Below are positions 3,421 to 41,144 of a stretch of DNA of 64,000 bases, in pieces. The stretch is from a virus, in IMG/VR virus record IMGVR_UViG_3300036715_002570, positions 86,678 to 150,677 of that record; one strand, 5' to 3'. The position numbers were made by a program, and so were the translations under genes. The notes beneath the pieces are model-generated. The model was not told where the DNA came from and did no database searches. It saw only the letters and a list, made by a program, of their open reading frames with translations. Within the stretch, counting starts at the first letter, position 1, and the number at the start of each line of letters is the position of its first letter.

Positions 3421-3546
3421 ATGGAGAGCAATTGGCACAACTGGTTTGCGTGGCGGCCAGTTCGAATGATGGGTGGTAGGATTGTATGGTTCTGCTACGT
3501 ATGGCGCCGTCGAATTCGACAGCAATGGCAATATCACGTTTTCTGA
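3421..3546 (+). CDS. small Trp-rich phage protein (WHNWFAWRPVR family), not in ORF track
   Basis: GGAGG RBS; MESNWHNWFAWRPVRMMGGRIVWFCYVWRRR. Confidence 0.65.
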   Translation: MESNWHNWFAWRPVRMMGGRIVWFCYVWRRRIRQQWQYHVF

Positions 3547-3556
3547 AAGGCCAACG

Positions 3557-3814: not shown

Positions 3815-3851
3815 CGGTTGCGATATATACTCCGATCTAACAGGAGTTTCT

Positions 3852-4280: not shown

Positions 4281-4540
4281 AGTTACGAGCACTATTAGAG
4301 CGAGATTACACGTACCCTGTATCGGTTCAGTACGAACAGGAATACACAAATGCGGACGGTGAGGTTGACGTCGAGGAAGATCCATACGCTACAGGTGATT
4401 CTCCGTCGCTGTCTTCTTTTGAGCCGACAGCTGTGTTCGTGACGGACACAAAGGAGCAGCTGGATCTTGCAGCGTTCCTCAAGTCGTTGACACCAGCACT
4501 GTACGAGTGGATTACCAGCGAAGCGCTGGAATTGGCCTAA
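4277..4540 (+). CDS. small acidic protein, possible head-targeted protein
   Basis: MKLRALLE N-terminus; ATGA overlap. Confidence 0.55.
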   Translation: MKLRALLERDYTYPVSVQYEQEYTNADGEVDVEEDPYATGDSPSLSSFEPTAVFVTDTKEQLDLAAFLKSLTPALYEWITSEALELA

Positions 4541-4557
4541 TACTAGACGTGCCCTCA

Positions 4558-4563
4558 TAAATA
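4558..4563 (+). promoter_or_regulatory. T4-late-like TAAATA motif (others at 3394, 7496, 22342, 24683 on +; 13125 and 23755 on -)
   Basis: TAAATA shortly upstream of gene starts; a short motif, so position is the main evidence. Confidence 0.5.
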
Positions 4564-4590
4564 CTCCTACAACTCTGTAGGAGAACCAAT

Positions 4591-5355
4591 ATGAGTACAC
4601 AATGGAATATGGCTTCAGTACGCCGCCTCGCCGGCCTGCCACTGACAGAAGGTTGGATGCGTGATGACGACGACGATGATGAAGATCCAGACGTCAAGAT
4701 TGTCAATGCTGACAAGGGCCAAACGGCTTTCGAACGCAAGAACAAGAGCCACCTCGATGACAACGCTGAAGCACTGAAGAAACGCACAGCTGAAGTCAAG
4801 GCAAAGGCAGCTGAGAAAAAGGCCGAGAAGAAGGCTGAACCAAAGTCTGAGACCCCTGCAAAGGACAAGACAGAAGAGAAGTCTCCACCTGCTGAAAAGG
4901 CTCCTGCTAAGGCTGAGCCAGCCAAGGAAGAAAAGAAGGTTGAAGCTGCGGCTGAGAAGAAGCGTCGTGGTAAGGCTCCTGATGAGAACAGCAAGTCGGG
5001 CCAGATGCGTACGTGGTACAACGCAAACAAGCCAACACAGCGCAAGCACTTCCTTGCTCATGCAGCAAAGATTGGCATGAGCGCTGCTCAGGCATCAACC
5101 TTGCATGCCAAGCTGAATCCAAAGTCTGGCCGCGAGGTCAAGACCGACGAGTGCTACGTGATTACACACCCGTTCATGCCATCGTTCATGCTTGCAGAAA
5201 ACCGCGAAATGAACGGTCAAATGCAGTGGATCGATCCAGCAAGCCCTCTCGATCCATTGGTGTTTGAAACCGCTGAGGAAGCTCAGAAGGTTGTCAAGTA
5301 CATGGCTGAGTGGAAGGGTCAAACATCCAAGGTAACGAAGGTTGTGTTTGACTGA
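4591..5355 (+). CDS. probable internal head protein; K/E/A-rich linker plus divergent copy of the shared helical domain
   Basis: RRLAGLPLTE leader, TAAATA upstream, SKSGQMRTWY..R...GMSAAQASTL. Confidence 0.6.
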   Translation: MSTQWNMASVRRLAGLPLTEGWMRDDDDDDEDPDVKIVNADKGQTAFERKNKSHLDDNAEALKKRTAEVKAKAAEKKAEKKAEPKSETPAKDKTEEKSPPAEKAPAKAEPAKEEKKVEAAAEKKRRGKAPDENSKSGQMRTWYNANKPTQRKHFLAHAAKIGMSAAQASTLHAKLNPKSGREVKTDECYVITHPFMPSFMLAENREMNGQMQWIDPASPLDPLVFETAEEAQKVVKYMAEWKGQTSKVTKVVFD

Positions 5356-5496
5356 TCATGAACTCGCTGTTCTACACTGTCTGGCTCGGCGTTCAGGTAA
5401 TCCATCCAGACACCCATGTGGCTAATTGCAAAGCTCCGCGGTAAGACGTATGAGTGGTGGGGCGGCGTACAGTAAGACGCAAACTTACTAGTAAAC

Positions 5497-5525
5497 AAAG
5501 GGAAGCGTTGCTTCCCTTTCTTTTT
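5497..5525 (+). terminator. intrinsic terminator
   Basis: aaagggaagc-gtt-gcttcccttt followed by T-run. Confidence 0.8.
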
Positions 5526-5565
5526 GCCTATACGATATAGGCTTCTATCTACGTATGAAGCTCCT

Positions 5566-6045
5566 GTGAACAAACTTCTTGCCGCCCTGATGCTCGTCGC
5601 GTTTAACGCTTATGCGGTCGACGCCCCTGATCCGACGCTGACTCCTGGCGCCGCCCGAACGACGGACCCCGCTGACATCTGCTCGACCGCTGGTCACAAG
5701 ATCAGCACAAAGGATGTCCGCAATGTGCCAGAGTCCGTCAAGAGGCAAGTGTTCGCTGAGTATCACGTTGACGGTGGCAACCACACTGGTTACTGTGCTG
5801 TGACGAGCGGATGTGAAGTTGACCATCTGATCAGCCTGGAACTCGGCGGCAGCAACGACATCAAGAACCTGTGGCCGCAGCCGTACACCGGTGTGTGGAA
5901 TGCACACATGAAGGATGCGTTGGAGGATAAACTGCACCACATGGTCTGCACTGGTCAGATTTCGCTCCCCGATGCCCAACATGCGATCGCTTCCAACTGG
6001 AAGGGGGCATGGGTGAAGTACGTTAACAAGGGACAACCAAAATGA
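5566..6045 (+). CDS. exported HNH-type nuclease-fold protein
   Basis: signal peptide NKLLAALMLVAFNAYA; EVDHLISLELGGSN..NLWPQ. Confidence 0.7.
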   Translation: MNKLLAALMLVAFNAYAVDAPDPTLTPGAARTTDPADICSTAGHKISTKDVRNVPESVKRQVFAEYHVDGGNHTGYCAVTSGCEVDHLISLELGGSNDIKNLWPQPYTGVWNAHMKDALEDKLHHMVCTGQISLPDAQHAIASNWKGAWVKYVNKGQPK

Positions 6046-6314
6046 TTGCGTTGGGTACATACGTTCAGTTCAAGCCAGAAATGTTCCTCCCGCCGAATAC
6101 TCCATGGTATGATGGCTATGAAGGCCACGTATTCGAGGTGATCGGTTACATGCCGAACCAGGGGATTGAATTCGACCTGTCATCCCCTGAGCTCAAGGGA
6201 ACACCATTCGATCACGGTGACGTTGTGTACGACCACATCAGTCTGAAGTGCGTCACTGGCGATGTGGTCGTACGTGGATACGTCCATGATTGGGATGTGA
6301 TTCAGGTACCTTGA
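6042..6314 (+). CDS. hypothetical protein
   Basis: ATGA overlap. Confidence 0.6.
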   Translation: MIALGTYVQFKPEMFLPPNTPWYDGYEGHVFEVIGYMPNQGIEFDLSSPELKGTPFDHGDVVYDHISLKCVTGDVVVRGYVHDWDVIQVP

Positions 6315-6409
6315 CCTGTTCGCTGAACAGAATATATAGTAGATGACAGGTCTTCGGCTCATCCCTGCTAACTCTGCGCCAAAACAATAACTACAACAAG
6401 GAATAGAGC

Positions 6410-6937
6410 ATGAGCACACAGTACCCCGCAATTGAATATAAGTGGACCTCTTCCAAGGAATATGTTGATGCATTTCCTGTTGCATACCGGCAATGGAGAG
6501 ATGATGATAAGAATGGAGATATTCCTGGATGCAATAAAATTCACGGATATGCTTTCAGCATGAAATTTGAGTTTGGATCTAATGAACTTGATCGCCGAAA
6601 TTGGGTTCAAGATTATGGATCTCTCAAGCCACTGAAAGAGTTCTTACAATCCCAGTTTGACCATACCTTGTTGGTCGCATCCGACGATCCTGAGTTGAGT
6701 TGGTATAAAGAGGCTGATAAGCGAGGGATCGCAAAGGTAATTGAACTACCCAATCTGGGGTGCGAATGTCTGGCTGATATGTTGTACAAGTACGTCAATG
6801 GTGTGTTTATTCCCACCGCATTCGGTTCGGGAGAATCAGATCGCATTTGGTGCTACAGGGTTTCAGTGCGAGAAACACAATCGAATGTCGCGTCTCGCAC
6901 TGGTCATCGTGGGTGGGGAGAGGACCTCTTTGCCTGA
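6410..6937 (+). CDS. queD: 6-carboxy-5,6,7,8-tetrahydropterin synthase
   Basis: CNKIHGY, WVQDYG.LK, FDHTLLV, CE, VRET motifs. Confidence 0.88.
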   Translation: MSTQYPAIEYKWTSSKEYVDAFPVAYRQWRDDDKNGDIPGCNKIHGYAFSMKFEFGSNELDRRNWVQDYGSLKPLKEFLQSQFDHTLLVASDDPELSWYKEADKRGIAKVIELPNLGCECLADMLYKYVNGVFIPTAFGSGESDRIWCYRVSVRETQSNVASRTGHRGWGEDLFA

Positions 6938-7012
6938 AGTAGTAGTTCGCCACGGTGGTAGACAGCGCCGTGACCATAAACTTCTAAAAGTTTGGTATAG
7001 GCATTCGTCAGC

Positions 7013-7201
7013 ATGAGCACATCCACAGCCCAACCCGTCGCCGATACATTCAATGAATGTATCGCTCAAGAGTTGATTCTGCAAGTCAATCCAAATGCAA
7101 CAGAGGCAGAGATTACCGAGACTTGGCACAAGTGTCGCGATAATCCTTGGGATGCTGGCATCCTGTATGCTCTGTTGCAACTCGCAAGGGAGCGCGCATG
7201 A
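7013..7201 (+). CDS. hypothetical protein
   Basis: 62-aa ORF. Confidence 0.45.
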   Translation: MSTSTAQPVADTFNECIAQELILQVNPNATEAEITETWHKCRDNPWDAGILYALLQLARERA

Positions 7202-7528
7202 TCGATACAACCGTCACCGTGTCGGGGATGGGTGGGTGCATCCAGAATGAGATTTTCTTGATCTCTGGTGCACCCCGCGCAGCGGGGGTTCATTGTCAAG
7301 GTGGATGACTCATACTCCCCCACAGAGAAGTACGACGACCCCCTCAACACTCCAACAGGTTCGCCAGCATTGTCAGAAATTCAATGCTGGCATACTATCC
7401 CCTAACAGACCGCAAGCACGAACCAAATACTGTACGTATTATTGCTCGCCATATTCCCCGGGGGCGGTTAAACACAACATTGAAAGTGAATGCCATAAAT
7501 ACAGCACCTGCCCCATAGGAGCGTATGT

Positions 7529-8803
7529 ATGACATTCAAAATGATCCGGGAAGCACAAGCGCTTGCCCGCCTCGGCCGTAATGCTGAATTCACCCAAACC
7601 GTTAAGAACGTGTTGGGTGTTGACTCTGTAATCGGCTTGCCTGTGCTGCACGAAGGTGCAAGCCCTGAGCCAAGTGACTTCTCAACTTGGCTAACGACTC
7701 TCGTCGATCACGCCGCTGATGCTGGCATCAACATTTCAAAGCGTCAGGACTTTATGGACCTGGCCCACGAAATGTTTGACAACGACCCAAAGATGGGTAT
7801 GTTTGGTGGTGGCCACAAGATGCGTGAGCGTTGTGCCAATATGCTGTGGGCTCAGTACAAGATGAACCAAGCCCACCAGCAAGTGCAAGATCACGTTGCC
7901 AACGTTGTTGCCCCAGGCAACGAAAACGAAGAGTCTGGCTTCAGCCAAGCGCTGACGATGGCCAAGGGTAGCGAAAATGAAGAGCGTGCTCGCACAAAAG
8001 CGCCTGTTCTTGCTCGTGCTCTGAAGGTTAACACGAAGACCAAGAAGAACCCATACCCAGCTGGATCTCTCCGTGCAGCGCTGTGGGATGACCTGCATTC
8101 AGGCTCTGAGGATGAGGAAGAAGATCCAGAACTGCAAGACGATGTCAACGATGAGATTCCATCCGACATGGACGAGCCAGATTCATCCGATATGTCTCCA
8201 GATCAACTCGCCATGCGCATTACCGGTGTAGCACACACTAGCGAGGATGACGAGGGCGACATCGAAGCACGTCTCGATGACCTAGAACAGCGCGTATCTG
8301 ACATCGAAGGTACAGATAAGGACGTCGGCAACGATGAACTGCTGGACCAGGAGCGCGAAGACAATCCAGAAATGGATCATCCAAAGGCTGATGACGACAC
8401 CGACGACGCTGGCATCGACCAGATGGGCGATGACGAGTACGCTGACGATGATGGTGAGGAAGATCCGATTGCCGCTGTCCGCAATAAGCCAGAAGGTGAA
8501 AAGCCTCGTGCTTTCCAACCAGGTGCACGCTTCCAAGAGGACGAAGAGTTTTCACCGGAAGTAACCAAGACGATTTTCCAACACGCCATCACACAACCTA
8601 AGCAGCATATGGCTCAGGCTCTGAAGGATGAGGAAGATGCTGGTGCGACAGCTTGGCTGAAGACACAACTGCCTAAGAATCCCCACCCAAAGGATTCACC
8701 AGCACACCGTGCTTGGATGAAGGGTCTGCGCAACACTGCTGCGCAAGCTCTGGGTATTAACCTGAAGCCTCGCGACCCCGTGAAGACCAAGAAGAAGCGC
8801 TAA
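7529..8803 (+). CDS. acidic probable internal head protein
   Basis: TAAATA + GGAG upstream; repeated E(N/D)EE motifs; two KNP(Y/H)P..S....W repeats. Confidence 0.6.
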   Translation: MTFKMIREAQALARLGRNAEFTQTVKNVLGVDSVIGLPVLHEGASPEPSDFSTWLTTLVDHAADAGINISKRQDFMDLAHEMFDNDPKMGMFGGGHKMRERCANMLWAQYKMNQAHQQVQDHVANVVAPGNENEESGFSQALTMAKGSENEERARTKAPVLARALKVNTKTKKNPYPAGSLRAALWDDLHSGSEDEEEDPELQDDVNDEIPSDMDEPDSSDMSPDQLAMRITGVAHTSEDDEGDIEARLDDLEQRVSDIEGTDKDVGNDELLDQEREDNPEMDHPKADDDTDDAGIDQMGDDEYADDDGEEDPIAAVRNKPEGEKPRAFQPGARFQEDEEFSPEVTKTIFQHAITQPKQHMAQALKDEEDAGATAWLKTQLPKNPHPKDSPAHRAWMKGLRNTAAQALGINLKPRDPVKTKKKR

Positions 8804-9351: not shown

Positions 9352-10317
9352 TTGGCTAAGAAACAAGCACCGTATTTCACACTGGCTCCTACACAAAAAC
9401 CGAAAGTTGAGCCACCACCTGCCCAACTCCAGCTGTTCAGCAAGATGCACTTTGCGGCAATCGATCCGAAGATCGAACAGCTCGCTGATGAAGTCGCCCC
9501 GCGACTGAACAGAACAACGTCGATGACGTATTACGCAGTGCTCCATCCGGAGACTGTGTTTGAGCGGCTCGACGACATCCAGCCCGACACTGCTCAATAC
9601 GAAAAGTGGTCGTTGTGTGGCGTTACTGCTCAAGTAACCCCGAAGCGGATCCGCTCGTTCAGGGGCAACCTGAAATGTGTCTGCTGCGGCCGTGAAGGTA
9701 ATATGTTCCTTGTCGAGCGCCACAAAAACGACATAGGAGGATGCCAGTATCTGAACCTGTATCATGCGAGCCAATCTGGGCTCGCTCTGATGACGGTTGA
9801 TCACATCCTGCCCGATAGTCTTGGTGGCAAGTACAGTCAAGACAACTTCCAGACGATGTGCCGCAGCTGCAACAGCGCCAAGGGCAACCTGATGTCGATC
9901 CCTGAGATTGAGAAGGTTCGCGCAAACATCGCTTTGTACGCAAAATCCTGGGTCGTACATGAATTCCTTGACCTGCTGTTGAGCTTGCAGCTGCATATCA
10001 ATAAGGCAGAGGAAAACACGAAGGAACAGTCAGACTTGCGCAAAATCTTCGATCAGTACCGCCGCCGCATTAAGTACAACACCAAGCCGGGTGCTGCTAA
10101 CGCCGCTGTGCTCGAATTGCGTCAAGCTATCGACCGCCACTTCAGCCCGCGGCCCGTGATCGCCGCCCATGTCGTGAAGCCGCATTCGTGGCTTCACGAG
10201 ATTAAGTTGGCGTATCGTCGCTGGCGCAAGCAATCCAAGAAACTGGTTGCACAGTCGATTCGCCGGATGGGCGTATCACTAGTAAACATGTCGAACGCAA
10301 TGCTGTCGGATAAGTAA
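9352..10317 (+). CDS. HNH endonuclease-domain protein
   Basis: CVCCG...TVDHILPDSLGG....NFQTMCRSCNSAKG; GAGGAGG RBS before TTG. Confidence 0.8.
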   Translation: MAKKQAPYFTLAPTQKPKVEPPPAQLQLFSKMHFAAIDPKIEQLADEVAPRLNRTTSMTYYAVLHPETVFERLDDIQPDTAQYEKWSLCGVTAQVTPKRIRSFRGNLKCVCCGREGNMFLVERHKNDIGGCQYLNLYHASQSGLALMTVDHILPDSLGGKYSQDNFQTMCRSCNSAKGNLMSIPEIEKVRANIALYAKSWVVHEFLDLLLSLQLHINKAEENTKEQSDLRKIFDQYRRRIKYNTKPGAANAAVLELRQAIDRHFSPRPVIAAHVVKPHSWLHEIKLAYRRWRKQSKKLVAQSIRRMGVSLVNMSNAMLSDK

Positions 10318-27297: not shown

Positions 27298-27680
27298 TCG
27301 TATGATCAATTCGCTCGCCAAGTCAGTCCCCTGGGTGAGCCGGAACCCCGTCGTGCGGAGCCGGAACCGTAACTACTGTATAACCCGCAATATGATATGT
27401 CAACGAATAGTATAGGGGAGCGTAATCAGTGACGCCCGTAACACCGTACATTCCGCCGGGGAAGTTGTACGCAATTGGTCGTTGCCGGACTGCAACGTGA
27501 CAGCCCGGATTACCCACATAATCTGCGGGGAAGCAGTCGTTCTGCACGGGTGTTTACTAGTAGACATTTGAGCAAAAGTGATCACTCAACTCCGCCACAT
27601 TGTTGCTGATTTTCGCATAATGGGAACCACACCCAAGGGGAGGTAGTTCGTCATTATTGCGTTATATCCGCGTAATCTAC

Positions 27681-27865
27681 CCGTGGTCTCTGTTGATTAG
27701 TGCTGTTTTTAGCCATAATCAACATGATCTACCGGCGGATTATGTGCATAATCAACATGATCTGCACCGTGGTCTCTGTTGATTAGTGCTGTTTTTAGCC
27801 ATAATCAACATGGTCTGCACCGTGGTTACTAGTAAACATTGCTGTTTTAGCAACAATCAACACGG
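27681..27865. repeat. 46-bp direct repeat x2 (27681-27726, 27767-27812) plus partial/degenerate copies, with internal inverted repeat
   Basis: ccgtggtctctgttgattagtgctgtttttagccataatcaacatg. Confidence 0.9.
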
Positions 27866-30256: not shown

Positions 30257-30763
30257 ATGCAAGGATTCCAACGAGTCACTGACTTTAGCAAGCCGCACTA
30301 CCTGACGACAAAGGACCGCGTTGTTCGCGAGTACGAAGGCAAGCCGACGGCGTTCCGCGTGCTGTTCATCCGCAAGGGGCGGGACGGCAAGGGCGAAGCG
30401 CTGCTTGGCAGGACCGTTCCCGGTCAGGCGACGAAGATCATCAAGGTGACGGTGCCGGACGTGATCGATGCGGAAGTCGCCAAGCACGTTGAGGTCTGGC
30501 GTCCGACCGGTGAATATGTGCCGCGTGTCGGTGCGACCGAATATGCGGGCGACGTCGAGCCCGCACGCAAGCGGACGAAGCCAGCGGCGGGCGAGAGCAA
30601 GATCGCCAAGTGCAAGGCGTTCTACGCCTTGAACAAGACGCTGTCGCGTGATGCGATGCAGACCGCGTTCGTCGAGCAGTTCGGCTGCACCAAGCAGGGC
30701 GCCGTGACGTACTTCCTCACCTGCCAGCGGGAGCTTGGCGAGCTGGAGAAAGCCCCCAGTTGA
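30257..30763 (+). CDS. protein with C-terminal shared helical domain
   Basis: SKIAKCKAFY..SRDAM...FGCTKQGAVTYF. Confidence 0.8.
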   Translation: MQGFQRVTDFSKPHYLTTKDRVVREYEGKPTAFRVLFIRKGRDGKGEALLGRTVPGQATKIIKVTVPDVIDAEVAKHVEVWRPTGEYVPRVGATEYAGDVEPARKRTKPAAGESKIAKCKAFYALNKTLSRDAMQTAFVEQFGCTKQGAVTYFLTCQRELGELEKAPS

Positions 30764-30816
30764 GGATCGCGGTGATCCAGCGGGATAGTTGGACACCAAC
30801 CACGAGGAGCGTTCAC

Positions 30817-31131
30817 ATGAACATCAACAAGAGCTACACCCGCAGCGTGATGATCGGCCTGCTGCCGAAAGACGCGAACGTTGACGATCTCGACGCGGAA
30901 GACGGGCTGCATCTGCAAGCGGATGCGCATCAGCGACTGCTGACGGGGCTGAACCACATGGGGTTCGCACCGCTGTCGCCGTTGCACTTCACTGGTGAGA
31001 TGAAGCCCGAAGTCGAAGCCGGTCGTTACGGCGACATCGTGCTGCATGCAGCGGGCGTGTTCGGCCTGCGGTTCAGCGTCGATCCGGACGACGAGCACAC
31101 GTACGTGTGGATCTTCTACGACGAGCGTTGA
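30817..31131 (+). CDS. hypothetical protein
   Basis: promoter + GAGGAG. Confidence 0.7.
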   Translation: MNINKSYTRSVMIGLLPKDANVDDLDAEDGLHLQADAHQRLLTGLNHMGFAPLSPLHFTGEMKPEVEAGRYGDIVLHAAGVFGLRFSVDPDDEHTYVWIFYDER

Positions 31132-31188
31132 CCCTAACTACGTTCGCGTGGATACTGGACTCACCATCAACCAACGAGGAGCCTCATA

Positions 31189-31536
31189 GTGGCCAAGACC
31201 AACCTGTACACCGTCGACGTTTCGAAGTACAAAATCGATATCACCAAAATCGAGAAAATCGAAGATGCAGGTGATGACTTCGTCACGCGCGAAGAGCTGA
31301 TGGAGCTGCTCGGCGGAGACTCGGAGCGCTTCTATTATGGCTACCCCAAGCGGGCGTGGCGGTATTCGGTGATCTCCAGTGAGGTCGCTGCATGGAAGAG
31401 CAAGATCAAGGACGGCAGCAAGTCGATCATCATCACTGATGATGATGATCGACGCGCTGCAACAAAGCTACTATTCGGTGTCGGACTACGTCCCCGGAAC
31501 TCAACGCCGTGGCAACAGGCTGTTCATCCATGCTGA
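31189..31536 (+). CDS. hypothetical protein (3' end uncertain at a (GAT)n run)
   Basis: promoter + GAGGAG, GTG start. Confidence 0.6.
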   Translation: MAKTNLYTVDVSKYKIDITKIEKIEDAGDDFVTREELMELLGGDSERFYYGYPKRAWRYSVISSEVAAWKSKIKDGSKSIIITDDDDRRAATKLLFGVGLRPRNSTPWQQAVHPC

Positions 31537-31843
31537 TCCTGCAGTTCGCACCGTCGCGACCAAGAAGGACTACGGCCACCTGATCAACCGAATCCAGATG
31601 CAACTTAACAAACCGCTGAAGGGTTCGGCCTGTGTGATCGACATCAAGCACGTTTACGACGATTATGCGGGTGTTTTGCAGCTTCTGCAACGACTGATCA
31701 AGTGGGAGGAGATCGAGTGGACGTTCAACCACTACGGAACGACCATCACGACTGCTCCTGAAGAAGTCGACAGGATGAAGCAGATCTGGGACAACCCCAC
31801 GATGTTCGACAAGCAGCCGACCAACAAAGGCAGCCAATCGTGA
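31439..31843 (+). CDS. hypothetical protein
   Basis: probable start within the atgatgatg run. Confidence 0.5.
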   Translation: MMMIDALQQSYYSVSDYVPGTQRRGNRLFIHADPAVRTVATKKDYGHLINRIQMQLNKPLKGSACVIDIKHVYDDYAGVLQLLQRLIKWEEIEWTFNHYGTTITTAPEEVDRMKQIWDNPTMFDKQPTNKGSQS

Positions 31844-31933
31844 GCCTGCCCCTGTTGTCTGTTCACCTTTTCGTTAGATACTGGCTTTGCCAGTTAGGCA
31901 CCCATCCACAACCTTCACACGAGGACACATCAA

Positions 31934-32527
31934 ATGAACACGAACCAAAACGGCATGGCCGTCGCCCTGAAGTCGATCGAATCGAACGTCAACGTCGGCA
32001 TGGACGAAGTCGTCTCGGTGTTCGTCTCGAAGTACGAGACCAACCTGTTCGACACGAAGGACCAACTGCAGTCGCAGATCAAGGCGGACAAGCGCGAAGC
32101 CGACGACCTCGAGAAGGGCCTGATCGCTTCGGTCAAGCGCAGCGACTACGAAGCGACGGTGCCCCATCTCGGCCTGACGTTCACCGTCGACGGTGTGACG
32201 GTCAACTGGAGCGATGACAGCTACCGCACGAGGGGTAAGTCGATCGTCATCGCCATCAAGATGGCCGATCGTGGCGACCGCGACAACCACTCCGCCTACA
32301 CGAAGTCGATGTTCGTGCCGATCAACCAGATCGATCTCGACGAGAAGGCGCGTCTGACCGCGCTGATCGCCGATCTCGAGGGCAAGCTGCTCGAGGTGAT
32401 GGGCAACATCAAGCAAGTCGGTCGCAAGGAACGGCAGATTCGCGGCAAGATCGCCGAGATGAAGCTGGGTCAGTGCGGCATGGCTGCCCTGCTGCAGAAC
32501 GAAGAGCTGCTCAAGCTCGTCGGCTGA
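31934..32527 (+). CDS. coiled-coil hypothetical protein
   Basis: promoter + GAGG, strong codon bias. Confidence 0.8.
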   Translation: MNTNQNGMAVALKSIESNVNVGMDEVVSVFVSKYETNLFDTKDQLQSQIKADKREADDLEKGLIASVKRSDYEATVPHLGLTFTVDGVTVNWSDDSYRTRGKSIVIAIKMADRGDRDNHSAYTKSMFVPINQIDLDEKARLTALIADLEGKLLEVMGNIKQVGRKERQIRGKIAEMKLGQCGMAALLQNEELLKLVG

Positions 32528-32627
32528 TCAACGGCGACGGTGTGGGGATAACTCCCCACACCAGCAGTGTTGTCAGTAACCGTGGTCTAAAGGATACTGA
32601 CTTCACTGTAACGAACTGGAGAGCGAA

Positions 32628-33254
32628 GTGCTCAACGTCAACGTAGCCCTGCGGCACCTGGACATCAACCCGAACAGCGTGATGCGTGCCGTGCAAGAGG
32701 TGCGGCTCCACATCGAAGAGCGTGGGACCGAGCCGTCTGAAGCGATCAGCTTCATGCAGCGGGTGTTCGGCACGGCGCCGTCGTACGCGGAAGTTCACGA
32801 GCAGAAGATGTGCTCGCCGTTCGTCTACGCGGTCACGGTCGCGCAAGCGATGACGGAAGCTGCGATCAAGCAGCATGGGCAGATCGATAACGATACACTG
32901 CCGCTGCTGCTCGCGAACGCGAAAAAGCGGGCGGAAGGCGTGATCATGAAGCCGGAGAACCGCTGCATGTACGCTGAAGCGGAATCGGTCACGGGTGGAA
33001 ACACTACGTCGGCCGCTGTTGCCAAGAGCGTCGACACCGTCGTCGAGGTCAAGGCGTCGGGCGAAATCAAGAAGGGCGGAAAGCAGATTCTGGCTGAGGC
33101 CCTGTACCGCAAGCACGTTCTCGACACACCGTCGCCGTTGACAAACCAAGAATTCATCAAAGTGCTGATCGCAGAAGCACAAATGACGAAGGGTGGAGCA
33201 ACGACGTATGCGTTCAATCTGAAGAAGAAGCTGGGCGCTCCGAAGACGGAGTGA
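32628..33254 (+). CDS. protein with C-terminal shared helical domain
   Basis: GKQILAEALY...QMTKGGATTYAFNLKKKL. Confidence 0.8.
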   Translation: MLNVNVALRHLDINPNSVMRAVQEVRLHIEERGTEPSEAISFMQRVFGTAPSYAEVHEQKMCSPFVYAVTVAQAMTEAAIKQHGQIDNDTLPLLLANAKKRAEGVIMKPENRCMYAEAESVTGGNTTSAAVAKSVDTVVEVKASGEIKKGGKQILAEALYRKHVLDTPSPLTNQEFIKVLIAEAQMTKGGATTYAFNLKKKLGAPKTE

Positions 33255-33312
33255 CTTGTTGAACTTGGTCGGAAGGTGTTGTATCATCTTCCCACCGCAA
33301 CCAAGGACCAGT

Positions 33313-33570
33313 ATGCTGCCGATTCCGCGAATCCAAGCGATGATCACAATCGTTGAGACGAACCAGATCATGAAGGTGGTGTTCACCAACGTGGGCAACA
33401 TGATGGACGAGCTGCTGATTGCGATCGAGCTCGCATCGATCGCTCTCGGACGCTGGATCGACCCGACCCCGTTCAATGTGCTGCGTGGTGAAGACATCTT
33501 CATCTGGTTCCTGTACGAGGGCACCAACGAGAAGTACATGACGGTCCTGGGGCATAAGCTCAGCGACTGA
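33313..33570 (+). CDS. hypothetical protein
   Basis: hairpin promoter + AAGGA. Confidence 0.7.
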   Translation: MLPIPRIQAMITIVETNQIMKVVFTNVGNMMDELLIAIELASIALGRWIDPTPFNVLRGEDIFIWFLYEGTNEKYMTVLGHKLSD

Positions 33571-33638
33571 CTAGTTGACCCCAACAGGAGATCGTGGTAT
33601 GATCTCCTCTCCACAACCACTCCCCAAGGAGGAGCACC

Positions 33639-34208
33639 ATGAAGTACACTATCCAGATCGGCGACACCCGCCTGGTCCAAGACGACAACGGCGACGTGTT
33701 TGAGTTCACCGCGACGCGCCAACTGTCGAGGGAAGAAGCCCAGGCGAAGATCGCCGAACGCGAGCAGGAGTTCCGTGACGAGATCGCTAGCCTGCTCAGC
33801 GGGCTCAGCGAGGTCGGCGGGCAGAGCATGGTTGTGCTCGACACTGCTGCATCCGCCATGGACGGCAGCAACGGCCACCCGCAATGCGCTGTCTGCGGCA
33901 CACACCACGAGGGCGCTTTCGCCAGCCTGGACGCCGAGATCGTCACAACGTACCCGGTGACCGAGAGCGTCTGGTTCAACTACCCGAACACCGACGCGCT
34001 TGAGGACGACGTCACGCCGAAGCTGTACTTGACGGAGCGCACCACCGGCCGCGCGATCATCGAAGAAGAGCCTGAGCTGCTGGACTGCTCCGCTGAGCAC
34101 GAGCACGGCGCGCTGATCCGCAAGTTTGTGTTCGAGGACGCCACGCCGGCTGAGAAGCCGGTGATGACGATCACGATCCAACCGGTGCCGTACCCGACCG
34201 TCCACTGA
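33639..34208 (+). CDS. acidic hypothetical protein with CxxC
   Basis: hairpin promoter + GGAGG. Confidence 0.75.
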   Translation: MKYTIQIGDTRLVQDDNGDVFEFTATRQLSREEAQAKIAEREQEFRDEIASLLSGLSEVGGQSMVVLDTAASAMDGSNGHPQCAVCGTHHEGAFASLDAEIVTTYPVTESVWFNYPNTDALEDDVTPKLYLTERTTGRAIIEEEPELLDCSAEHEHGALIRKFVFEDATPAEKPVMTITIQPVPYPTVH

Positions 34209-34221
34209 CCACCGTCTCCTC

Positions 34222-34267
34222 GTTCAGAAGGGCTCTGCTAGCAACGGTAGGGCCCTTCCGCTTTTTG
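34222..34267 (+). terminator. intrinsic terminator
   Basis: gaagggctctgc...gtagggcccttc + T-run. Confidence 0.7.
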
Positions 34268-34366
34268 GTCACGAACGGGTAGTTTCACCCTGTTGATCAT
34301 TACCCTCGACGGTATTAGGATAGACCCTGTCGATTGATCAACAACGTCACCTACAGGAGATCAGAC

Positions 34367-34504
34367 GTGAACAAGTCGCACCGTGCCAAGCATGCCCCGC
34401 AGCGCAAGAACGACGGCGGTGATTCGCGGATGAACCGCCTGGCGAAGGCGGCCCGCAAGGGAACGCTGGCCCGCGTCCGTGAGCGCGAGGCGCAGGAGGG
34501 CTGA
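34367..34504 (+). CDS. 45-aa basic protein, not in ORF track
   Basis: promoter, AGGAG, GTG; MNKSHRAKHAPQRK. Confidence 0.65.
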   Translation: MNKSHRAKHAPQRKNDGGDSRMNRLAKAARKGTLARVREREAQEG

Positions 34505-34778
34505 TCACGTCACCCTGTTGATCCTAGCTCGCAATTGGGTTAGGATCAACTCAACACCTGGAGATCTGAATGGGATTACCGCTATAGGGCTTTGATGTGA
34601 CATGCGCCCGCCCCGAAGTCACCCTCGGCTAGAGTTATCTGTGCTGCGGCAGCGCTCAGCAAGTGTGCTGAGACCGCCCGCGATCAGAGAATACGCATGT
34701 TAGAGGATTCCGGCGCCGGCCCGGGCCGGCGCCCCCAGCGCATTCATATCAACAATCCCACCTGGAGGATCCCAGAGC

Positions 34779-34970
34779 ATGAGCAAGAACAGCAAGAACG
34801 CCAAGCGCCACATCACTGAGAAGCAGGCGTCGACCCAGCGCCTCGCTGGCAACAAGGGCCCGTCGAAGACGGCGCCAAAGCACGGCAAGAAGAACGCGTG
34901 GTGGCAGAAGTACCTGTCGTACGCCAGCTACATCAAGGGCGGCAAGAAGGCGGCCAATCAAGACCAGTAG
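34779..34970 (+). CDS. 63-aa Lys-rich protein
   Basis: GGAGG RBS. Confidence 0.7.
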   Translation: MSKNSKNAKRHITEKQASTQRLAGNKGPSKTAPKHGKKNAWWQKYLSYASYIKGGKKAANQDQ

Positions 34971-35059
34971 GCCGCCGCGGCTGAAGCACGAAAAGGACCC
35001 ATGTGGTTCTTTCGTTGTTTTTGGGGTACAATTGTTACATCTTTCAACGAGGAGCAACC

Positions 35060-35410
35060 ATGCCCACGAACAAGCTGTTTACGAACATTGACCGGAAGGT
35101 GTCCCGCGGCCGCCAGGACGTGACGCTGTTGCAGTTCGCAACGGTCGGTGCCCACAAGGTCAGAATCGAGGTCAAGTCGGACTCTTACAAATTCCAATGC
35201 TATGCCCACTTATCGGTTCTCGATAAGGAAAAGATGGCATGGAACCCCGTGGTGCATATCCCCCATGGTCAGATGCACACCCCTGAGGGCGTGTGCTATC
35301 AACCGGATGCCCGTGAGGTCACTGCCCACAATCAATCTACGCTTGCAGCCAAGTATTTTGGCGCCGACGTCAACGAGCTGATCCGTATCTATAAAGCGTT
35401 GATCGACTGA
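35060..35410 (+). CDS. hypothetical protein
   Basis: GAGGAG RBS. Confidence 0.7.
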   Translation: MPTNKLFTNIDRKVSRGRQDVTLLQFATVGAHKVRIEVKSDSYKFQCYAHLSVLDKEKMAWNPVVHIPHGQMHTPEGVCYQPDAREVTAHNQSTLAAKYFGADVNELIRIYKALID

Positions 35411-35557
35411 GTGGGTGTTTTCACCTCGTGGTGAAAAAAGCATCATCGCCCAGTTGATTCGACCTGCGGTTTCCCTTATAGTTACTTCACTGGATCGAAC
35501 AACGCAAGCAAGCGACTACGACCAGCCCTCATCCACCCTCTCCACAGGAGCTGCACC

Positions 35558-36193
35558 ATGTCCAAGAACCTCGCCCCCGCGCAACACGCCGTCGCCCTCG
35601 CCATCCTCGCCGCCGTCGGCCGCGAAGTCCTCGCCACCGAGGAAGGCAACACCCACACGCTCAAGATCACCGGCATCTCGCCCGACCAAGTCGGCTCGAT
35701 GAAGGACAAGAGCAAGGCTCCGTACGCCGTGCTGACCCGCGACGGCGAGGACGGCGGCGAGGCGATCGTCGTCGCCCTGCACCCGAAGAACGCCTCGGCC
35801 CTGCTCGAGAAGGGCGAGGACGGTATCTACAAGCTGGTCGCCGCTGAGGGCACGACCGAGGCCGTCTCGACCTCGGCCGCCGCCGAGCCGACGACCACGG
35901 AAGCGTCCGCCGAAGGCACGGCCGAGGGCAACGCCGAAGCGACCGTCGAGGCCAAGGACAACGTGCCGACCAAGAAGGAAATGGCGATCGACGCCTACAT
36001 CACGTTGGCCAACGACGGCAAGACCCGCGCCGAGATCATCAAGCACTTCGTTGACGTGATCGGCCTGTCCAAGGCGGGCGCCGCCACGTACTACCAGAAC
36101 TGCCACTCGAACAAGGCGGGCTGGACCGAAGCGCTCGAGACCTCCAGCGACGCCGCGGGCACTGAGAACGATGCCGAAGCGGACGCGTCCTGA
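35558..36193 (+). CDS. acidic protein with shared helical domain
   Basis: TKKEMAIDAY..TRAEIIKHF...GLSKAGAATYYQ. Confidence 0.85.
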   Translation: MSKNLAPAQHAVALAILAAVGREVLATEEGNTHTLKITGISPDQVGSMKDKSKAPYAVLTRDGEDGGEAIVVALHPKNASALLEKGEDGIYKLVAAEGTTEAVSTSAAAEPTTTEASAEGTAEGNAEATVEAKDNVPTKKEMAIDAYITLANDGKTRAEIIKHFVDVIGLSKAGAATYYQNCHSNKAGWTEALETSSDAAGTENDAEADAS

Positions 36194-36233
36194 TCGGGCA
36201 ATGGGGAGCTACGAGCTCCCCCACTCCACCCAG

Positions 36234-36273
36234 AGGGTGGGTAGTCGTGAGGCTACCCACCCTTTCTCCTTTT
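36234..36273 (+). terminator. intrinsic terminator
   Basis: gggtgggtagtc-gtga-ggctacccaccc + T-rich tail. Confidence 0.8.
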
Positions 36274-36580
36274 CATGTGGGCAGATGGCGGAAAGAGCTT
36301 ATCTGCAACGACGTTATTACTGAGGATTTCCCATGGACGACCCAGCTGGTCAATGTCTCCTAGACCTCTAGCAGATAAGCGACCATTGAATCAGGAGACT
36401 ATCGACAGATTACCCTACTGTATAGTCCGTTGACATTAGCTGCTTATTCTGGTTGACCGGTTGATCTCAACCCAGTTTACCCTGATAGTAGACCCCAATG
36501 CGAACGGAATTCCAGCCGGCGCAGAAACTTCAACCACAGGGCAGTTTCGCCCAGCTTTCCTTTTACAGGAGCCTTTCATC

Positions 36581-37036
36581 ATGTCGACCACCCAAGCCGT
36601 CAACCTGTCCCCCAACGCGATCAAGATCCTCGGCTACGTCAGCAAGGGCCTGAACACCCGCGAAGCGATCGCCAAGCGCATGAAGACCAGCGTGCCCGTC
36701 GTCAACGGCAGCCTGACCGTCCTGAAGCGCCAGGAGATGGTCACCGTCGACGAAGAAGGCGTGATCACCGCCGTCGAGGGCGCCGCCGTCGTCGCCGAGT
36801 CCGCCCACACGCCGCGCTCGCAGAGCAAGATGGCGCAGGCCCGCAAGCTGTACGCGAAGTACCAGCACAAGGGCCGTCAGGTCGTGCTCGACAAGCTGAT
36901 CGGCATCGGCCTGACCCCGAAGGGCGCGTCGACGTACTACCAGACGCTGAAGACGCGCGCCGACGCCGAGGCTGCCGCGCCCGCCGCTCCGGTCGCCCGC
37001 AGCCGCAAGTCGCAGGCCGCTGCCACCCACGCCTGA
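36581..37036 (+). CDS. winged-HTH protein with shared helical domain
   Basis: N-terminal TREAIAKRMKTSVPVVNGSLTVL; C-terminal SKMAQARKLY..GLTPKGASTYYQ. Confidence 0.8.
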   Translation: MSTTQAVNLSPNAIKILGYVSKGLNTREAIAKRMKTSVPVVNGSLTVLKRQEMVTVDEEGVITAVEGAAVVAESAHTPRSQSKMAQARKLYAKYQHKGRQVVLDKLIGIGLTPKGASTYYQTLKTRADAEAAAPAAPVARSRKSQAAATHA

Positions 37037-37075
37037 TCGGGGCGATCTGGGTGCCGCTCTGAGGGCGGCCTCCAC

Positions 37076-37091
37076 TGTTCACTAGTAAACA
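37076..37091. promoter_or_regulatory. near-palindromic operator-like site TGTTCACTAGTAAACA
   Basis: core ACTAGTAAACA also at 5487, 10278, 27551 (rev), 27828, 41053, 41087. Confidence 0.6.
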
Positions 37092-37186
37092 TCTGGTGTA
37101 ATAGTGGTGGCCGCCCTCTCCGTTTGCACTGTTGACTAATTAGGGTGAAGGCAGTATCCTGCATCACCACTTCGAGGAGTCAACTG

Positions 37187-37504
37187 ATGCCCAAGAAATT
37201 GACCGATGCGGACCGCGTCCGTGCTGCGATGAAGGCGGCGGGGTTCAAGACGAAAACCCGCGTCGGCGACGTTGCTCTGAAGCGCAACGTCAATGTGTCC
37301 GACCGCTCGTGCAACCCGTACATCCAGCTGACGCTGCCGCTCGCCGCCGACATCAACAAGGCGCCGCTGGAGCAGCAACATAAGCTCCATGACGAGCTGG
37401 TCAAGCAGTTCGGTGATCGGTACGCGTTCGGGATGTTCCGCCGTCCGCACCCGCGTCTGTCGACGTACCTGCAGTTCTACGTCACGCGGGAGAAGAAGCA
37501 ATGA
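37187..37504 (+). CDS. basic hypothetical protein
   Basis: hairpin promoter + GAGGAG. Confidence 0.7.
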   Translation: MPKKLTDADRVRAAMKAAGFKTKTRVGDVALKRNVNVSDRSCNPYIQLTLPLAADINKAPLEQQHKLHDELVKQFGDRYAFGMFRRPHPRLSTYLQFYVTREKKQ

Positions 37505-37867
37505 TGTACCAGCACCTGCCCGAGCGTGTGACGGAGACGGTTCAGCGCCACCCGCAACGTCCGCAGACTCCGACGCAATGGCCTCTCGGCCTGCCCGTCT
37601 CTCCTCCTTCGAACAGCAAGGACAAGCCTCGTTGGTGAGCGCGCTGCCCACTTGAGGTACGAAGGCTGGTGTGCAAATGTCACCCAGCCTTCTTAAAAAA
37701 GTCAACGGCGAAAAACAAACAGGCGCTCTCGCCGTCCACCCACAGGATGCCTGTTCGACCGCATACCCATTATCACCGCACACTAGAGAAAAGGCAAGCC
37801 CCTCCTTAACGGTTGCCAAGTTACCCGTGCGGAAGGATACTAAGGCATCGCAATTGAGGAGCCCGCA

Positions 37868-38389
37868 ATGGCCCGCACGCCCAAGCCGCAACCGCTCGTG
37901 ACCAAGGAAACGCTGCAGCAGATGATCCAGCTTGCAGCCAACCGCGCCGAGCAGAAGAAGATCGTTGGCCGCGCGCTCGTCGCGCTGTACCAACGTCAGA
38001 CGCCGTCGGAACAGTCGTCTGAAACGACGAAGGACAGCAACTCGATCGGGTTCTCCAGTGCCGATGCCGACGTCGGCTCCCGCTGCGCGAAGTACTTCCT
38101 GCAGCACCAGACGCTGCTCGACTGGATGTACGGCGTCTGGATGCAAGCCGGTAAGGGCGGCTATCCGCGTATCTGCCGGTACAGCCGCCAGCTGAACGAG
38201 ATCGCTGAAGAGAAGGCGGCTCGCAAGCGTACGCTGATGCAGCGCCGCCTGGAGGAGCTGAAGGTGACCTATGGTGAGTGCGTCGACAGCGACGATCCGT
38301 CGATCCTCCAGCCGATCGTTGACGAAATGCGCTCGCTCGAAGATCGACTGGGTGTTTCGCCCTACATCATCATTGGTGCTGTTGTCTAA
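37868..38389 (+). CDS. conserved phage protein (RAL.ALY.RQT..EQ...GF...DA type)
   Basis: motif recognition, promoter + RBS. Confidence 0.75.
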   Translation: MARTPKPQPLVTKETLQQMIQLAANRAEQKKIVGRALVALYQRQTPSEQSSETTKDSNSIGFSSADADVGSRCAKYFLQHQTLLDWMYGVWMQAGKGGYPRICRYSRQLNEIAEEKAARKRTLMQRRLEELKVTYGECVDSDDPSILQPIVDEMRSLEDRLGVSPYIIIGAVV

Positions 38390-38532
38390 ACTGAATAGGT
38401 CAGATACGCTCAATCCGTCAACTGAAAAATTCGCTCAATAAGAGTGGATCTGCTAAGCAGGGCACCCAGCCAGTAAGAGGAGGGTTGGGGCGGATCGGAA
38501 GGTTGGCGTATTCCAACCAACCAGGAGCGAGA

Positions 38533-38709
38533 ATGACCTGTGAAGCAGTCGAAGACACCGTCACCCCGACCGAGAACCTGAAGTCGCCCGTGTTCGCGGC
38601 GCTGATGGCCCAGATCATGATGCCGCAGCAATACGACACGATCATGCAACACGCGCTGGTGTCCGTCAACGCGAAGTGCCCCAGCCGCACTGTGACCATC
38701 GACAAGTGA
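38533..38709 (+). CDS. hypothetical protein
   Basis: AGGAG RBS. Confidence 0.6.
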   Translation: MTCEAVEDTVTPTENLKSPVFAALMAQIMMPQQYDTIMQHALVSVNAKCPSRTVTIDK

Positions 38710-38716
38710 GGAGATC

Positions 38717-38911
38717 ATGAGCACCAACTTCGACAACATCGTCCTGATGGGCCAGATCCAACGGATCGCGGAGGCCCACGGTGTCCAAGCAGCCGCTCAT
38801 GTCGCCGACGACGCTGGCGTCCCGTTCAAGCAGGCGCACGCGATCCTGCTGCCGTACTGCGCCCGTGGGCGCACGTCGGTCCCGGCCGTTAAGGTGCAGC
38901 TGCTGCACTAG
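38717..38911 (+). CDS. hypothetical protein
   Basis: GAGGAG RBS. Confidence 0.6.
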   Translation: MSTNFDNIVLMGQIQRIAEAHGVQAAAHVADDAGVPFKQAHAILLPYCARGRTSVPAVKVQLLH

Positions 38912-39005
38912 GCAGTTGCCAAGCCAGCAGCCTTTGTGGGATAGTTCCTACATCGGCTGCTGATTGAAGCGCAGCCGAGATGTTCTTCAATCAGCGGGAG
39001 CTTGC

Positions 39006-39236
39006 ATGGCAATCATCAAGGAAGACACTCCGACCACGCTCGGCGTTCAGTTCGTCGTCGAGCTGCAGGTGGCGAACCACATCGACGGCAACTACCTCGA
39101 CCACGAGATGATGGCCTCTGCGATCCACGGTGCGATCCGGTGGATGCTGGATCGCCGTGGATACGCCGGCTGCAAGACGACGGTCGACTCAGTGCAGTAC
39201 GAAACCGATTACCCAATTGACAAGGCGGCGGAATGA
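39006..39236 (+). CDS. hypothetical protein
   Basis: GGAG RBS. Confidence 0.65.
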   Translation: MAIIKEDTPTTLGVQFVVELQVANHIDGNYLDHEMMASAIHGAIRWMLDRRGYAGCKTTVDSVQYETDYPIDKAAE

Positions 39237-39673
39237 TGAGAGAATTCTTCTACCGCACCGACTGGATCGGTGTTGCGATCGCGTTCGTGATCCTGTCCCT
39301 CTTCTTCACCACCGGAGCTGCTCAATGAAGATCAAGAAAGCCCTCACCCCCTTTGCATACGCCGTCCTGTTCGCGCTTGCGCTCGACGGGTTGATCGTGT
39401 GGGCGATCATCGAGGGCTGGGTCACCTACACGCAGGCTCACCCGTGAAGGGTTGGCTGGTTGAGCGCCCTGCTCCCAGCCGTTTTTATAACGATGCTCAA
39501 GGAGAGCTGAATGAAATGGTTCCTGCGTCTGTGGTTGATCTGGGCGTGCTTGTGTCTGGTCGGCAGCGGTCTGTGCGTCTACGCGGTGGTGCATTTCATC
39601 CAGAAGTTCTGGTGATCCGTTGACCCTCACCAGGAGTTAGGGTACACTACGTCCATCGTAGTGAGGAATCAAC

Positions 39674-40513
39674 ATGCACCTGACCGCTGAACTGAAGGCT
39701 CGTGTCACCGCGAAGATCAAGGACGGCATCGCTCGCGCTGAGAAGCGCTACGGCCGCACGTTTCCGATGCCGACGATCGGGTACGACCTGACCGGCCGCG
39801 TCGCTGGATACGCGAACTACATCAAGTGGCACATCCAGCTGAATGCTGACCTGCTGGTTCGCAACGTCGATGATTTCATCGCCCGCACTGTCCCGCATGA
39901 GCTTGCGCACTTGATCACCGACCGGGTGTATCCGGAGAACCACCGGAACAAGGGGATCACGATCACCCGCACCGGCCGCGTCAAGCGTGAGAAGCGAGAC
40001 ATCCACGGGACTGACTGGCAGAGCGTCTGCCTGGTGCTCGGGATGACCGATGTCACCCGCTGCCACAGCTACGACACGACTGAGACCAAGCGCGTTACGT
40101 CGCGTAGCCGGACGGTCGAATGGCAATGCCCGTGCGGTGCCAAGCTGATGCTGTCGCCGAAGATATCGGCAGAACTTGCAATCAACCCAGACTCGCGCTG
40201 GCACAAGTCGTGCCGGTGCCGTCGCCTGTTCCGTGCAGGTACCCAGCCCGCACCGACCTCGAACACGACGGTGCATGTTCGCCCGCAGCCGGCTCCGATT
40301 CTCCTGCCGAAGCCGACCCCGACGCCTGTGCTGTGCACCGCTGCAGCGGTGCAACAGGGCGCCAGCAAGATCGATGTCTGCTCTGCGCTGTACAAGGCTG
40401 CGCCTGTGGGTACGTCGCGCACCGCGATGATCGCACTGTTCGTCGCCAATGCGAACTGCACCCCCACGGGCGCGGCGACGTACTACCAGACGCTGAAGAA
40501 GAAGTTCAGTTGA
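39674..40513 (+). CDS. SprT-like zinc metalloprotease with C-terminal shared helical domain
   Basis: GRVAG.A, PHELAH, HG.DWQ, CHSY; SKIDVCSALY..CTPTGAATYYQTLKK. Confidence 0.85.
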   Translation: MHLTAELKARVTAKIKDGIARAEKRYGRTFPMPTIGYDLTGRVAGYANYIKWHIQLNADLLVRNVDDFIARTVPHELAHLITDRVYPENHRNKGITITRTGRVKREKRDIHGTDWQSVCLVLGMTDVTRCHSYDTTETKRVTSRSRTVEWQCPCGAKLMLSPKISAELAINPDSRWHKSCRCRRLFRAGTQPAPTSNTTVHVRPQPAPILLPKPTPTPVLCTAAAVQQGASKIDVCSALYKAAPVGTSRTAMIALFVANANCTPTGAATYYQTLKKKFS

Positions 40514-40658: not shown

Positions 40659-40907
40659 ATGTCTGGATACGCTGGGGTTGATGATGATGCCCTACACGCG
40701 TTGATTCTCGCTGAAAACGGAATCAACGCGGCCAAATCAATGGTCGACGGACCTTCCCTGTCTGAATGTTTGGACTGTGGAGAATCGATCACTCCGAAAC
40801 GGATCCAAGCACTTGCAACGATCGGGATGCGGTGCATGTATTGCATTGACTGTCAACCGAAACACGACAAGCCGGGCGGCATCAAGATGCTCGATCGGAT
40901 CCTGTGA
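40659..40907 (+). CDS. DksA/TraR C4 zinc-finger protein
   Basis: CLDCGESI...R......CIDCQ. Confidence 0.85.
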   Translation: MSGYAGVDDDALHALILAENGINAAKSMVDGPSLSECLDCGESITPKRIQALATIGMRCMYCIDCQPKHDKPGGIKMLDRIL

Positions 40908-41144
40908 GGCGCTTGCCTTCCGGGGTGCTCTGGTTGCGGATCAACAGGTGGATCGCGCTTCCCTGGAAGACGACACAGACGCCGACGGCTGCGCTGAAGT
41001 TCAAGCCCGGATTGCCGCTCGTGACCGTGTGCTGTCCAAGTTGGTGAGATCCACTAGTAAACACCCACCCTCGATTACTCCATACCACTAGTAAACATTG
41101 GTGGTCTGGGTATCATACCGTCTTCACAACGCAAGGAGAGTGGG

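Follow-up and report, generated by a model that had tools for sequence, protein, structure and literature searches.

A helix-turn-helix-like module shared by six otherwise dissimilar phage proteins is a candidate nucleic-acid anchor for varied effectors

Why would a phage attach one and the same stretch of about 50 residues to proteins that otherwise hardly resemble one another? The question is raised by a window of 64,000 nucleotides, by which we mean the whole stretch of DNA analyzed here, namely positions 86,678-150,677 of IMG/VR record IMGVR_UViG_3300036715_002570, which belongs to the 150,677-bp genome of an uncultured phage (all phage coordinates below follow the numbering of the window). 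Six open reading frames (ORFs) on its plus strand, starting at 30257, 32628, 35558, 36581, 39674 and 4591 and designated here proteins A to F in this order, had been proposed to carry copies of a common helical domain that addresses different effectors to a shared target. All six are present at these starts, together with the peptides that had been quoted for them. Below we argue that the domain, hereafter the module, represents a new, uncurated family of the helix-turn-helix (HTH) type with many fusion partners, and that it may act as a portable anchor on nucleic acid.

The relationship among the copies can be established within the genome itself. The C-terminal ~50 residues of proteins A to E form a connected set of pairwise BLASTP alignments in which little else aligns, the best pair being A and E with 43% identity over 49 residues and an expect value (E-value) of 7e-7. 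Each of these copies was then sought with a hidden Markov model (HMM) trained on the remaining five modules, F included, among all 2,094 stop-to-stop ORFs of at least 40 residues in the genome. The omitted copy was always the best non-training match, with E-values of 4.7e-10 for A, 2.5e-6 for B, 6.1e-10 for C, 1.4e-8 for D and 1.1e-12 for protein E, and the next ORF had an E-value above 0.3. Likewise, a profile of 207 foreign instances, from which the window's own proteins had been left out, recovers A to E with E-values between 3.6e-11 (for B) and 1.2e-19, and it finds no seventh copy in the 150,677-bp genome. The K, G, A, T and Y residues of the signature (K4, Y12, R20, F27, T34, G37, A38, T40, Y41) are invariant across the five copies. 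Judging from these alignments, the domain shared among the window proteins is real and statistically solid, and the proposal of one such domain in six proteins is thus confirmed, with F as a divergent member.

The place of F in this set requires a separate argument. Taken alone its copy is marginal, with E-values of 0.025-0.031 from the within-genome and foreign-only profiles, yet it is always the first non-training match; it keeps the S-K, W-Y, R, G-M-S and A-S-T elements of the signature and has L-H in place of Y-Y. Metagenomic phage contigs contain 77 full-length orthologues of F, and some of these have a clearer module at the same position (P0209 with an E-value of 7.7e-8, P0228 with 8.7e-6 and P0219 with 1.7e-5). 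Because orthologues carry recognizable copies exactly where F has its own, we regard F as a true, if divergent, member of a subfamily. F had also been taken for a probable virion protein that could be delivered at injection, and this part of the original prediction finds no support. The gene is flanked by a NUDIX hydrolase gene (3852-4280; PF00293, 3e-12) and a gene for a QueD-type 6-pyruvoyl-tetrahydropterin synthase (PTPS; 6410-6937; PF01242, 5e-14) and also has an HNH-like gene among its neighbors, none of them structural, and F itself has no virion or structural match in Pfam or PHROGs. With nothing in the neighborhood or in the family scans to favor it, the idea of capsid targeting was rejected for the 4591 product. 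As an observation in its own right, QueD beside 4591 suggests that the phage DNA may carry 7-deazaguanine modifications.

The module had been placed near the C-termini of the proteins, which is correct for A to E and incorrect for F, where it is central (residues 134-175 of 254). Protein A (30257-30763, 168 residues) consists of a conserved beta-rich N-terminal domain, a basic linker and the module (nucleotides 30590-30739, residues 112-161), and protein B (32628-33254, 208 residues, GTG start) of a helical N-terminal part followed by a module (33075-33236, residues 150-203) with a 4-residue insertion after helix 1. In protein C (35558-36193, 211 residues), an N-terminal domain is joined through an acidic Ala/Thr/Glu linker to the module (35966-36109, residues 137-184), which precedes an acidic tail. 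Protein D (36581-37036, 151 residues from the ATG at 36581) combines a probable winged HTH domain (residues ~8-80) with the module (36821-36958, residues 81-126) and an Ala/Pro-rich tail. Protein E (39674-40513, 279 residues) starts with a SprT-like zinc metalloprotease domain (HELAH motif at residues 75-79), continues with a CxC...CxC zinc ribbon and a Pro-rich linker, and ends with the module (40361-40507, residues 230-278). Protein F (4591-5355, 254 residues) comprises an acidic run, a low-complexity region rich in Lys, Ala, Glu and Pro, the divergent module (4990-5115) and a conserved C-terminal domain.

The consensus of the module can be written as (S/T)K-helix1-Y ... (S/T)R-helix2-F ... 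G-x-T-x-A-G-A-x-T-Y-Y-x-x-x-K-K. All three helices begin with an S/T cap; in helices 1 and 2 a conserved basic residue comes next. Across the family, K4 and Y41 are each conserved in 97% of instances, A38 in 95%, T40 in 94% and G37 in 89%; F27, Y12, T34, R20 (R in 73%, K in 20%), K46 and K47 come next. Conservation is strongest in the N-terminal half of helix 3, where T-x-A-G-A-x-T-Y-Y is nearly invariant, and this is why a common target of the module, as originally envisaged, appears plausible. The helix-3 positions that are presumed from helical periodicity to be exposed (35, 36, 39, 43 and 44) vary among paralogues. Averaged over the 207 foreign instances (~51 residues each), the net charge is +4.1; 94% of them are positive and 81% carry +3 or more, and the window copies range from +2 to +8. 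Two cysteines show a pattern of their own: Cys8 in helix 1 and Cys33 in the turn before helix 3 occur together in 36 instances and singly in 14 (odds ratio 141, calculated without phylogenetic correction), and a third cysteine is often present at module position 45. Module cysteines are found at residues 119, 144 and 156 of protein A and 237 and 262 of protein E. The Cys8/Cys33 pairing fits a contact between helix 1 and the turn, and the pattern could stem from packing of the core, from a disulfide or redox switch, or from a metal site.

Structure prediction agrees with the original suggestion that the module is HTH-like. A single-sequence AlphaFold2 model of protein E is poor overall, yet its last 50 residues reach a predicted local distance difference test (pLDDT) score of 80-89; with an alignment of 35 sequences (alignment A3), the module is modeled at a pLDDT of 94.5 as a three-helix bundle with helices at positions 5-15, 22-33 and 37-51 and a tight, 3-residue turn between helices 2 and 3. 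Foldseek found nothing significant in the PDB (best E-value 2.6), and its non-significant top rows were the winged-helix or HTH domains of BirA, MepR/MarR, DtxR, ScaR, Sso10a, Mu transposase I-beta and Rok. VIA-align, run against 48,161 chains, gave RecX repeats (Z 6.6 and 5.8), P-element transposase (6.4), the MCM C-terminal winged helix (6.0), homeodomains (5.3-5.7) and winged helices of the CRP type (~5), so that HTH and winged-helix domains dominate, all of them below the Z of 8 under which the tool considers matches of small helical domains non-discriminating. Close matches in BFVD (template modeling score 0.8, 20-34% identity) are all uncharacterized phage proteins, those of T4-like phages included. 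The predicted fold class is thus HTH-like, with no specific solved relative.

Set beside the tri-helical and winged HTH domains taken as reference (GerE/LuxR PF00196, sigma-70 region 4 PF08281, Rok PF23159 / PDB 5ZUZ, homeodomains and the MCM C-terminal winged helix), the module has the same ~50 residues, three helices, short Gly-containing turn between helices 2 and 3 and long helix 3, as well as a basic surface and a portable use in fusion to other domains. It differs from them in scoring below the Pfam gathering thresholds, in its own K...Y...R...F...G-x-T-x-A-G-A-x-T-Y-Y...K-K signature and in the absence of a predicted wing. RecX repeats (PDB 3E3V, 3DFG) are likewise three-helical, ~50 residues long and arranged in tandem, and 47-50 residues can be aligned with a root-mean-square deviation of 1.9-2.4 A; however, identity is only 8-13%, there is no sequence-profile signal, the Z scores lie within the chance range of helical bundles and no link to RecA is evident.

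An already characterized family could in principle have accounted for these copies, and none of the curated families searched covers the module. Neither the six proteins nor the stand-alone and tandem members fall into a module family of Pfam, PHROGs or NCBIfam, the scans giving nothing beyond sub-threshold HTH matches and one sub-threshold match to DUF7726 (19.6 bits against 26). A Pfam scan at E-values up to 1e-3 of the 150 best matches of the family search described below returned partner domains together with sub-threshold HTH matches over helix 2, the turn and helix 3 (WH_Rok three, GerE two, HTH_10 one). The best scores, each against its gathering cut-off, were 22.7/27.6 for WH_Rok (PF23159), 21.3/23.5 for GerE (PF00196), 21.4/23.1 for HTH_10 and 16.5/25.7 for Sigma70_r4_2; these families matched only one to three of the 150 members and none of the six window proteins. 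Searches of PDB sequences with profiles A1 and A3 gave noise only (E-values above 0.08), the ESM Atlas returned unnamed viral clusters (score 0.81) and no named one, and a literature search on the module motif and on SprT fusions in phages yielded no account of the module. A possible resemblance to DUF3489 (PF11994) was considered and dropped, the family being absent from every Pfam scan at E-values up to 1.

How widespread is the module? The five-copy profile (alignment A1), searched against 1.84 billion representative proteins, matched 1,967 clusters at E-values of 1e-3 or below and 153 at 1e-10 or below, corresponding to ~2,000 family clusters at 50% identity that come nearly all from uncultured large phages. 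Architectures and partners were counted in the best 150 of the 1,967 clusters: the module is single in 82 of them, duplicated in tandem in 64 and present three times in 4, and in 131 the final copy stops 10 residues or fewer before the C-terminus. Proteins of 63-67 residues made of the module only also exist. A genome can carry several copies, as seen in Vibrio phage Bakedbeans (five), in the T4-like Aeromonas phage Ahp1 (four) and in metagenome contigs of 13.7 kb (four) and 7 kb (two), and every copy seen in GenBank phage records is annotated as a "hypothetical protein".

No match to the 11-kb region was found by Megablast among 50,697 phage records, tblastn with two family members hit only two cultured phages, and tblastn with protein E retrieved other SprT genes in alignments that stop at about residue 229, before the module; a search of IMG/VR for related loci with protein E as the single query found none. 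In cellular genomes the module is rarely met. A scan of 185,579 species, with patterns that reach only close relatives of the tandem member P0006, gave two loci, and a profile search of 301 Burkholderiales genomes detected the module in Pandoraea anhela only, where it had already been found. In this organism (strain LMG 31108, NZ_CABPSB010000017.1, locus 2792-7787) the module occurs as a stand-alone protein of about 55-87 residues. By our reading of the locus, it lies between a 1,021-residue P-loop protein that is primase-helicase-like and a probable serine recombinase, a setting that looks like an integrative element and would mean that the domain also travels on non-phage elements.

The proteins joined to the module are as varied as had been noted, in this phage and likewise in many others, and they are connected to it by linkers. 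At least 40 residues precede the first copy in 124 of the 150 best matches, and these N-terminal parts fall into at least 41 groups at the BLAST level. The largest group (39 members) is a ~120-residue helical domain that is usually followed by two or three tandem copies; the N-terminal part of B was considered as a member of this P0001-like family and rejected, the family HMM having no match in the genome at E-values up to 0.1. The second largest, with 27 members, is the SprT-like protease with its zinc ribbon, which protein E joins at 3.1e-70. The Pfam scan identified SprT-like proteases in 25 of the 150 best matches and ADP-ribosyltransferases (ARTs) in three. Protein E is SprT-like by PF10263 (42.2 bits against a gathering cut-off of 25.6, E-value 8.2e-11), and because its score against the NCBIfam SprT model NF003421 (E-value 1.4e-25, 89.8 bits) is below the equivalog cut-off of 175, we consider it a member of the SprT-like family rather than an orthologue of the SprT protein from E. 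coli. The N-terminal part of D has only sub-threshold matches (CggR_N 1.3e-3, MarR_2 0.01, ArsR) and is probably a winged HTH domain. Outside the module, A, B, C and F belong to no family in the Pfam, PHROGs and NCBIfam scans; the partner of A nevertheless forms a family of 8 members (P0024, P0067 and P0069 among them) with the same architecture in other phages (E-value 3.4e-31), and that of C a family of 4 (including P0023, P0083 and P0090).

The three ART fusions are proteins of 608-844 residues with a C-terminal ART of the exoenzyme type (PF03496, up to 3e-29). All three (P0043, P0059 and P0084) are metagenomic and have two N-terminal module copies and further degenerate helical repeats; P0059 is MGD9581107.1, labeled as a Vampirovibrionia metagenome-assembled genome. 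They are possible counterparts of the T4 Alt/Mod enzymes with a built-in anchor for DNA or for a target. A survey of jumbo phages that does not describe the module tail mentions phage SprT-like peptidases and ARTs as probable anti-host enzymes, and it interprets such enzymes of T4-like and jumbo phages as a means of taking over host RNA polymerase or host proteins (PMC7824862).

Genes A to E lie in a region where promoter-like sites of the sigma-70 type are enriched (19 between 29 and 42 kb against 3.5 +/- 1.7 expected). One such site is found directly upstream of B (32570-32598), another upstream of C (35454-35482) and a third upstream of protein E (39620-39648). These sites fit early transcription by host RNA polymerase, which would place A to E in an array of small early genes. 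The heptamer ACCCTAA occurs 12 times between 9179 and 57279 against 2.3 expected, and several of its sites (for instance those at 31131, 37140 and 39637) adjoin promoter-like hexamers. Directly downstream of gene E is a gene for a small DksA/TraR-type C4 zinc-finger protein (40659-40907; PF01258, E-value 6e-5, just below the cut-off), whose product could bind the secondary channel of RNA polymerase as part of the same early array.

What, then, might the module do? Homology, family size, fold class, charge, partners and promoter context were computed here; that the ligand is DNA, and that the module serves for tethering, is what we infer. We lean towards the module being a nucleic-acid anchor, most likely for DNA with low sequence specificity. 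It would bind nucleic acid, probably double-stranded DNA, largely or wholly regardless of sequence, and, being portable, would enrich any fused part at DNA, or at host proteins bound to DNA, in the early phase of infection. The cargo would be a SprT-type protease, a winged-HTH regulator, the ARTs of other phages and further domains, and proteins with nothing but one to three copies would serve as small DNA-coating or regulatory proteins. We favor this reading because the fold is HTH-like, the positive charge is strong and consistent and the helices start with conserved basic residues, because the partners work on DNA or DNA-bound proteins and tandem-only proteins have basic linkers, and because the stand-alone copy of P. 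anhela adjoins genes read as replication and recombination genes. A known enzyme class offers a precedent for such an arrangement: Spartan combines a protease with DNA binding, and, like the DNA-dependent SprT proteases of the Spartan/Wss1 type, protein E and 25 of the 150 best members join an HExxH protease and a zinc ribbon to a putative DNA-binding tail, although the module differs from the zinc-binding and basic regions of Spartan.

Several observations weigh against such an anchor. The copies in A and C are only weakly basic (net +2 each), and the structural matches are no better than small helical bundles can produce by chance (Z < 8; Foldseek E-value > 1). Three-helix bundles also act as protein-protein modules. 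D already has a winged HTH and does not obviously need a second DNA-binding domain. Finally, a near-invariant helix 3 across phages of different hosts fits a conserved protein ligand equally well. This last point leads to the rather unlikely alternative that the module is a protein-protein adaptor docking on a single conserved piece of host machinery (the sliding clamp, a nucleoid protein, or RNA polymerase, the last for instance through mimicry of sigma region 4), to which the fused protease, ART and other effectors would thereby be addressed. As would be expected of a single conserved ligand, the T-x-A-G-A-x-T-Y-Y of helix 3 is almost unchanged in ~200 instances from phages with different hosts; the partners modify or cleave host proteins, if the exoenzyme-type ARTs and SprT-like peptidases are read as in PMC7824862, and there are the weak profile matches to Sigma70_r4_2. 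The strong positive charge of most copies and the HTH-like geometry, however, favor nucleic acid, and tandem-only proteins with basic linkers are harder to explain by docking. We hold a related idea to be similarly doubtful, namely that the module binds not DNA in general but a single host structure that is conserved universally, for example part of the surface of RNA polymerase or of a DNA-bound nucleoid protein. If this were true, large phages would share an "address label" by which an exchangeable set of early effectors (SprT protease, ART, regulators and further domains) is sent to the same target, and the tandem-only proteins would be competitive blockers of that target.

Less probable still is that each copy is a sequence-specific operator-binding domain, which would make the six proteins regulators of transcription or replication that read TGTTnACTAGTAAACA or promoter hairpins. 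In favor of this reading, ACTAGTAAACA was counted 10 times, with at most one mismatch allowed, where 0.37 occurrences are expected, and the 16-bp near-palindrome TGTTnACTAGTAAACA is formed at three of its sites. ACTAGTAAACA/TGTTnACTAGTAAACA sites lie at 5487-5497, 10278-10288, 27551-27566, 27823-27838, 37076-37091, 41053-41063 and 41087-41097, and the part of the sites that was compared with the ORFs is intergenic. One site follows the stop of D by 40 nucleotides, within a GC-rich stem-loop, and another the stop of F by 132 nucleotides; the variation of the presumed exposed helix-3 positions among paralogues would also suit this reading. We nevertheless disfavor phage-specific operators because helix 3 is near-invariant across phages of unrelated hosts: the same recognition-helix framework is found in Vibrio, Aeromonas and uncultured phages and in the Pandoraea mobile element, which share no operators. 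A classical repressor would not usually be fused to a protease or an ART, and no dimerization element is evident. TGTTnACTAGTAAACA is a candidate operator for a dimeric regulator, and the winged HTH of D is an obvious candidate reader that is at least as good. As to the shared terminal module on unrelated cargo, it does resemble an address tag, and certain phage proteins with an ART, T4 Alt among them, are carried in the virion (cited in PMC7824862). That the module directs packaging or capsid targeting, or marks injected proteins, nonetheless strikes us as very improbable, given that the five clustered genes stand behind sigma-70-type promoters in a small early-gene array and not in a late or structural one, that the neighbors of 4591 are those named above, that a stand-alone copy resides in what looks like a non-phage integrative element, and that a folded, basic 50-residue HTH is unlike the known short targeting peptides.

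Taken together, the module of proteins A to F is best described as a new HTH-type family whose design principle is ordinary. An anchor combined with a variable effector is familiar, and the surprise is accordingly moderate; it would rise if the ligand turned out to be a specific host machine. Naming the family would, at the same time, provide a partial annotation for thousands of phage early proteins and would flag their N-terminal partners as candidate host-takeover effectors acting on or near DNA.

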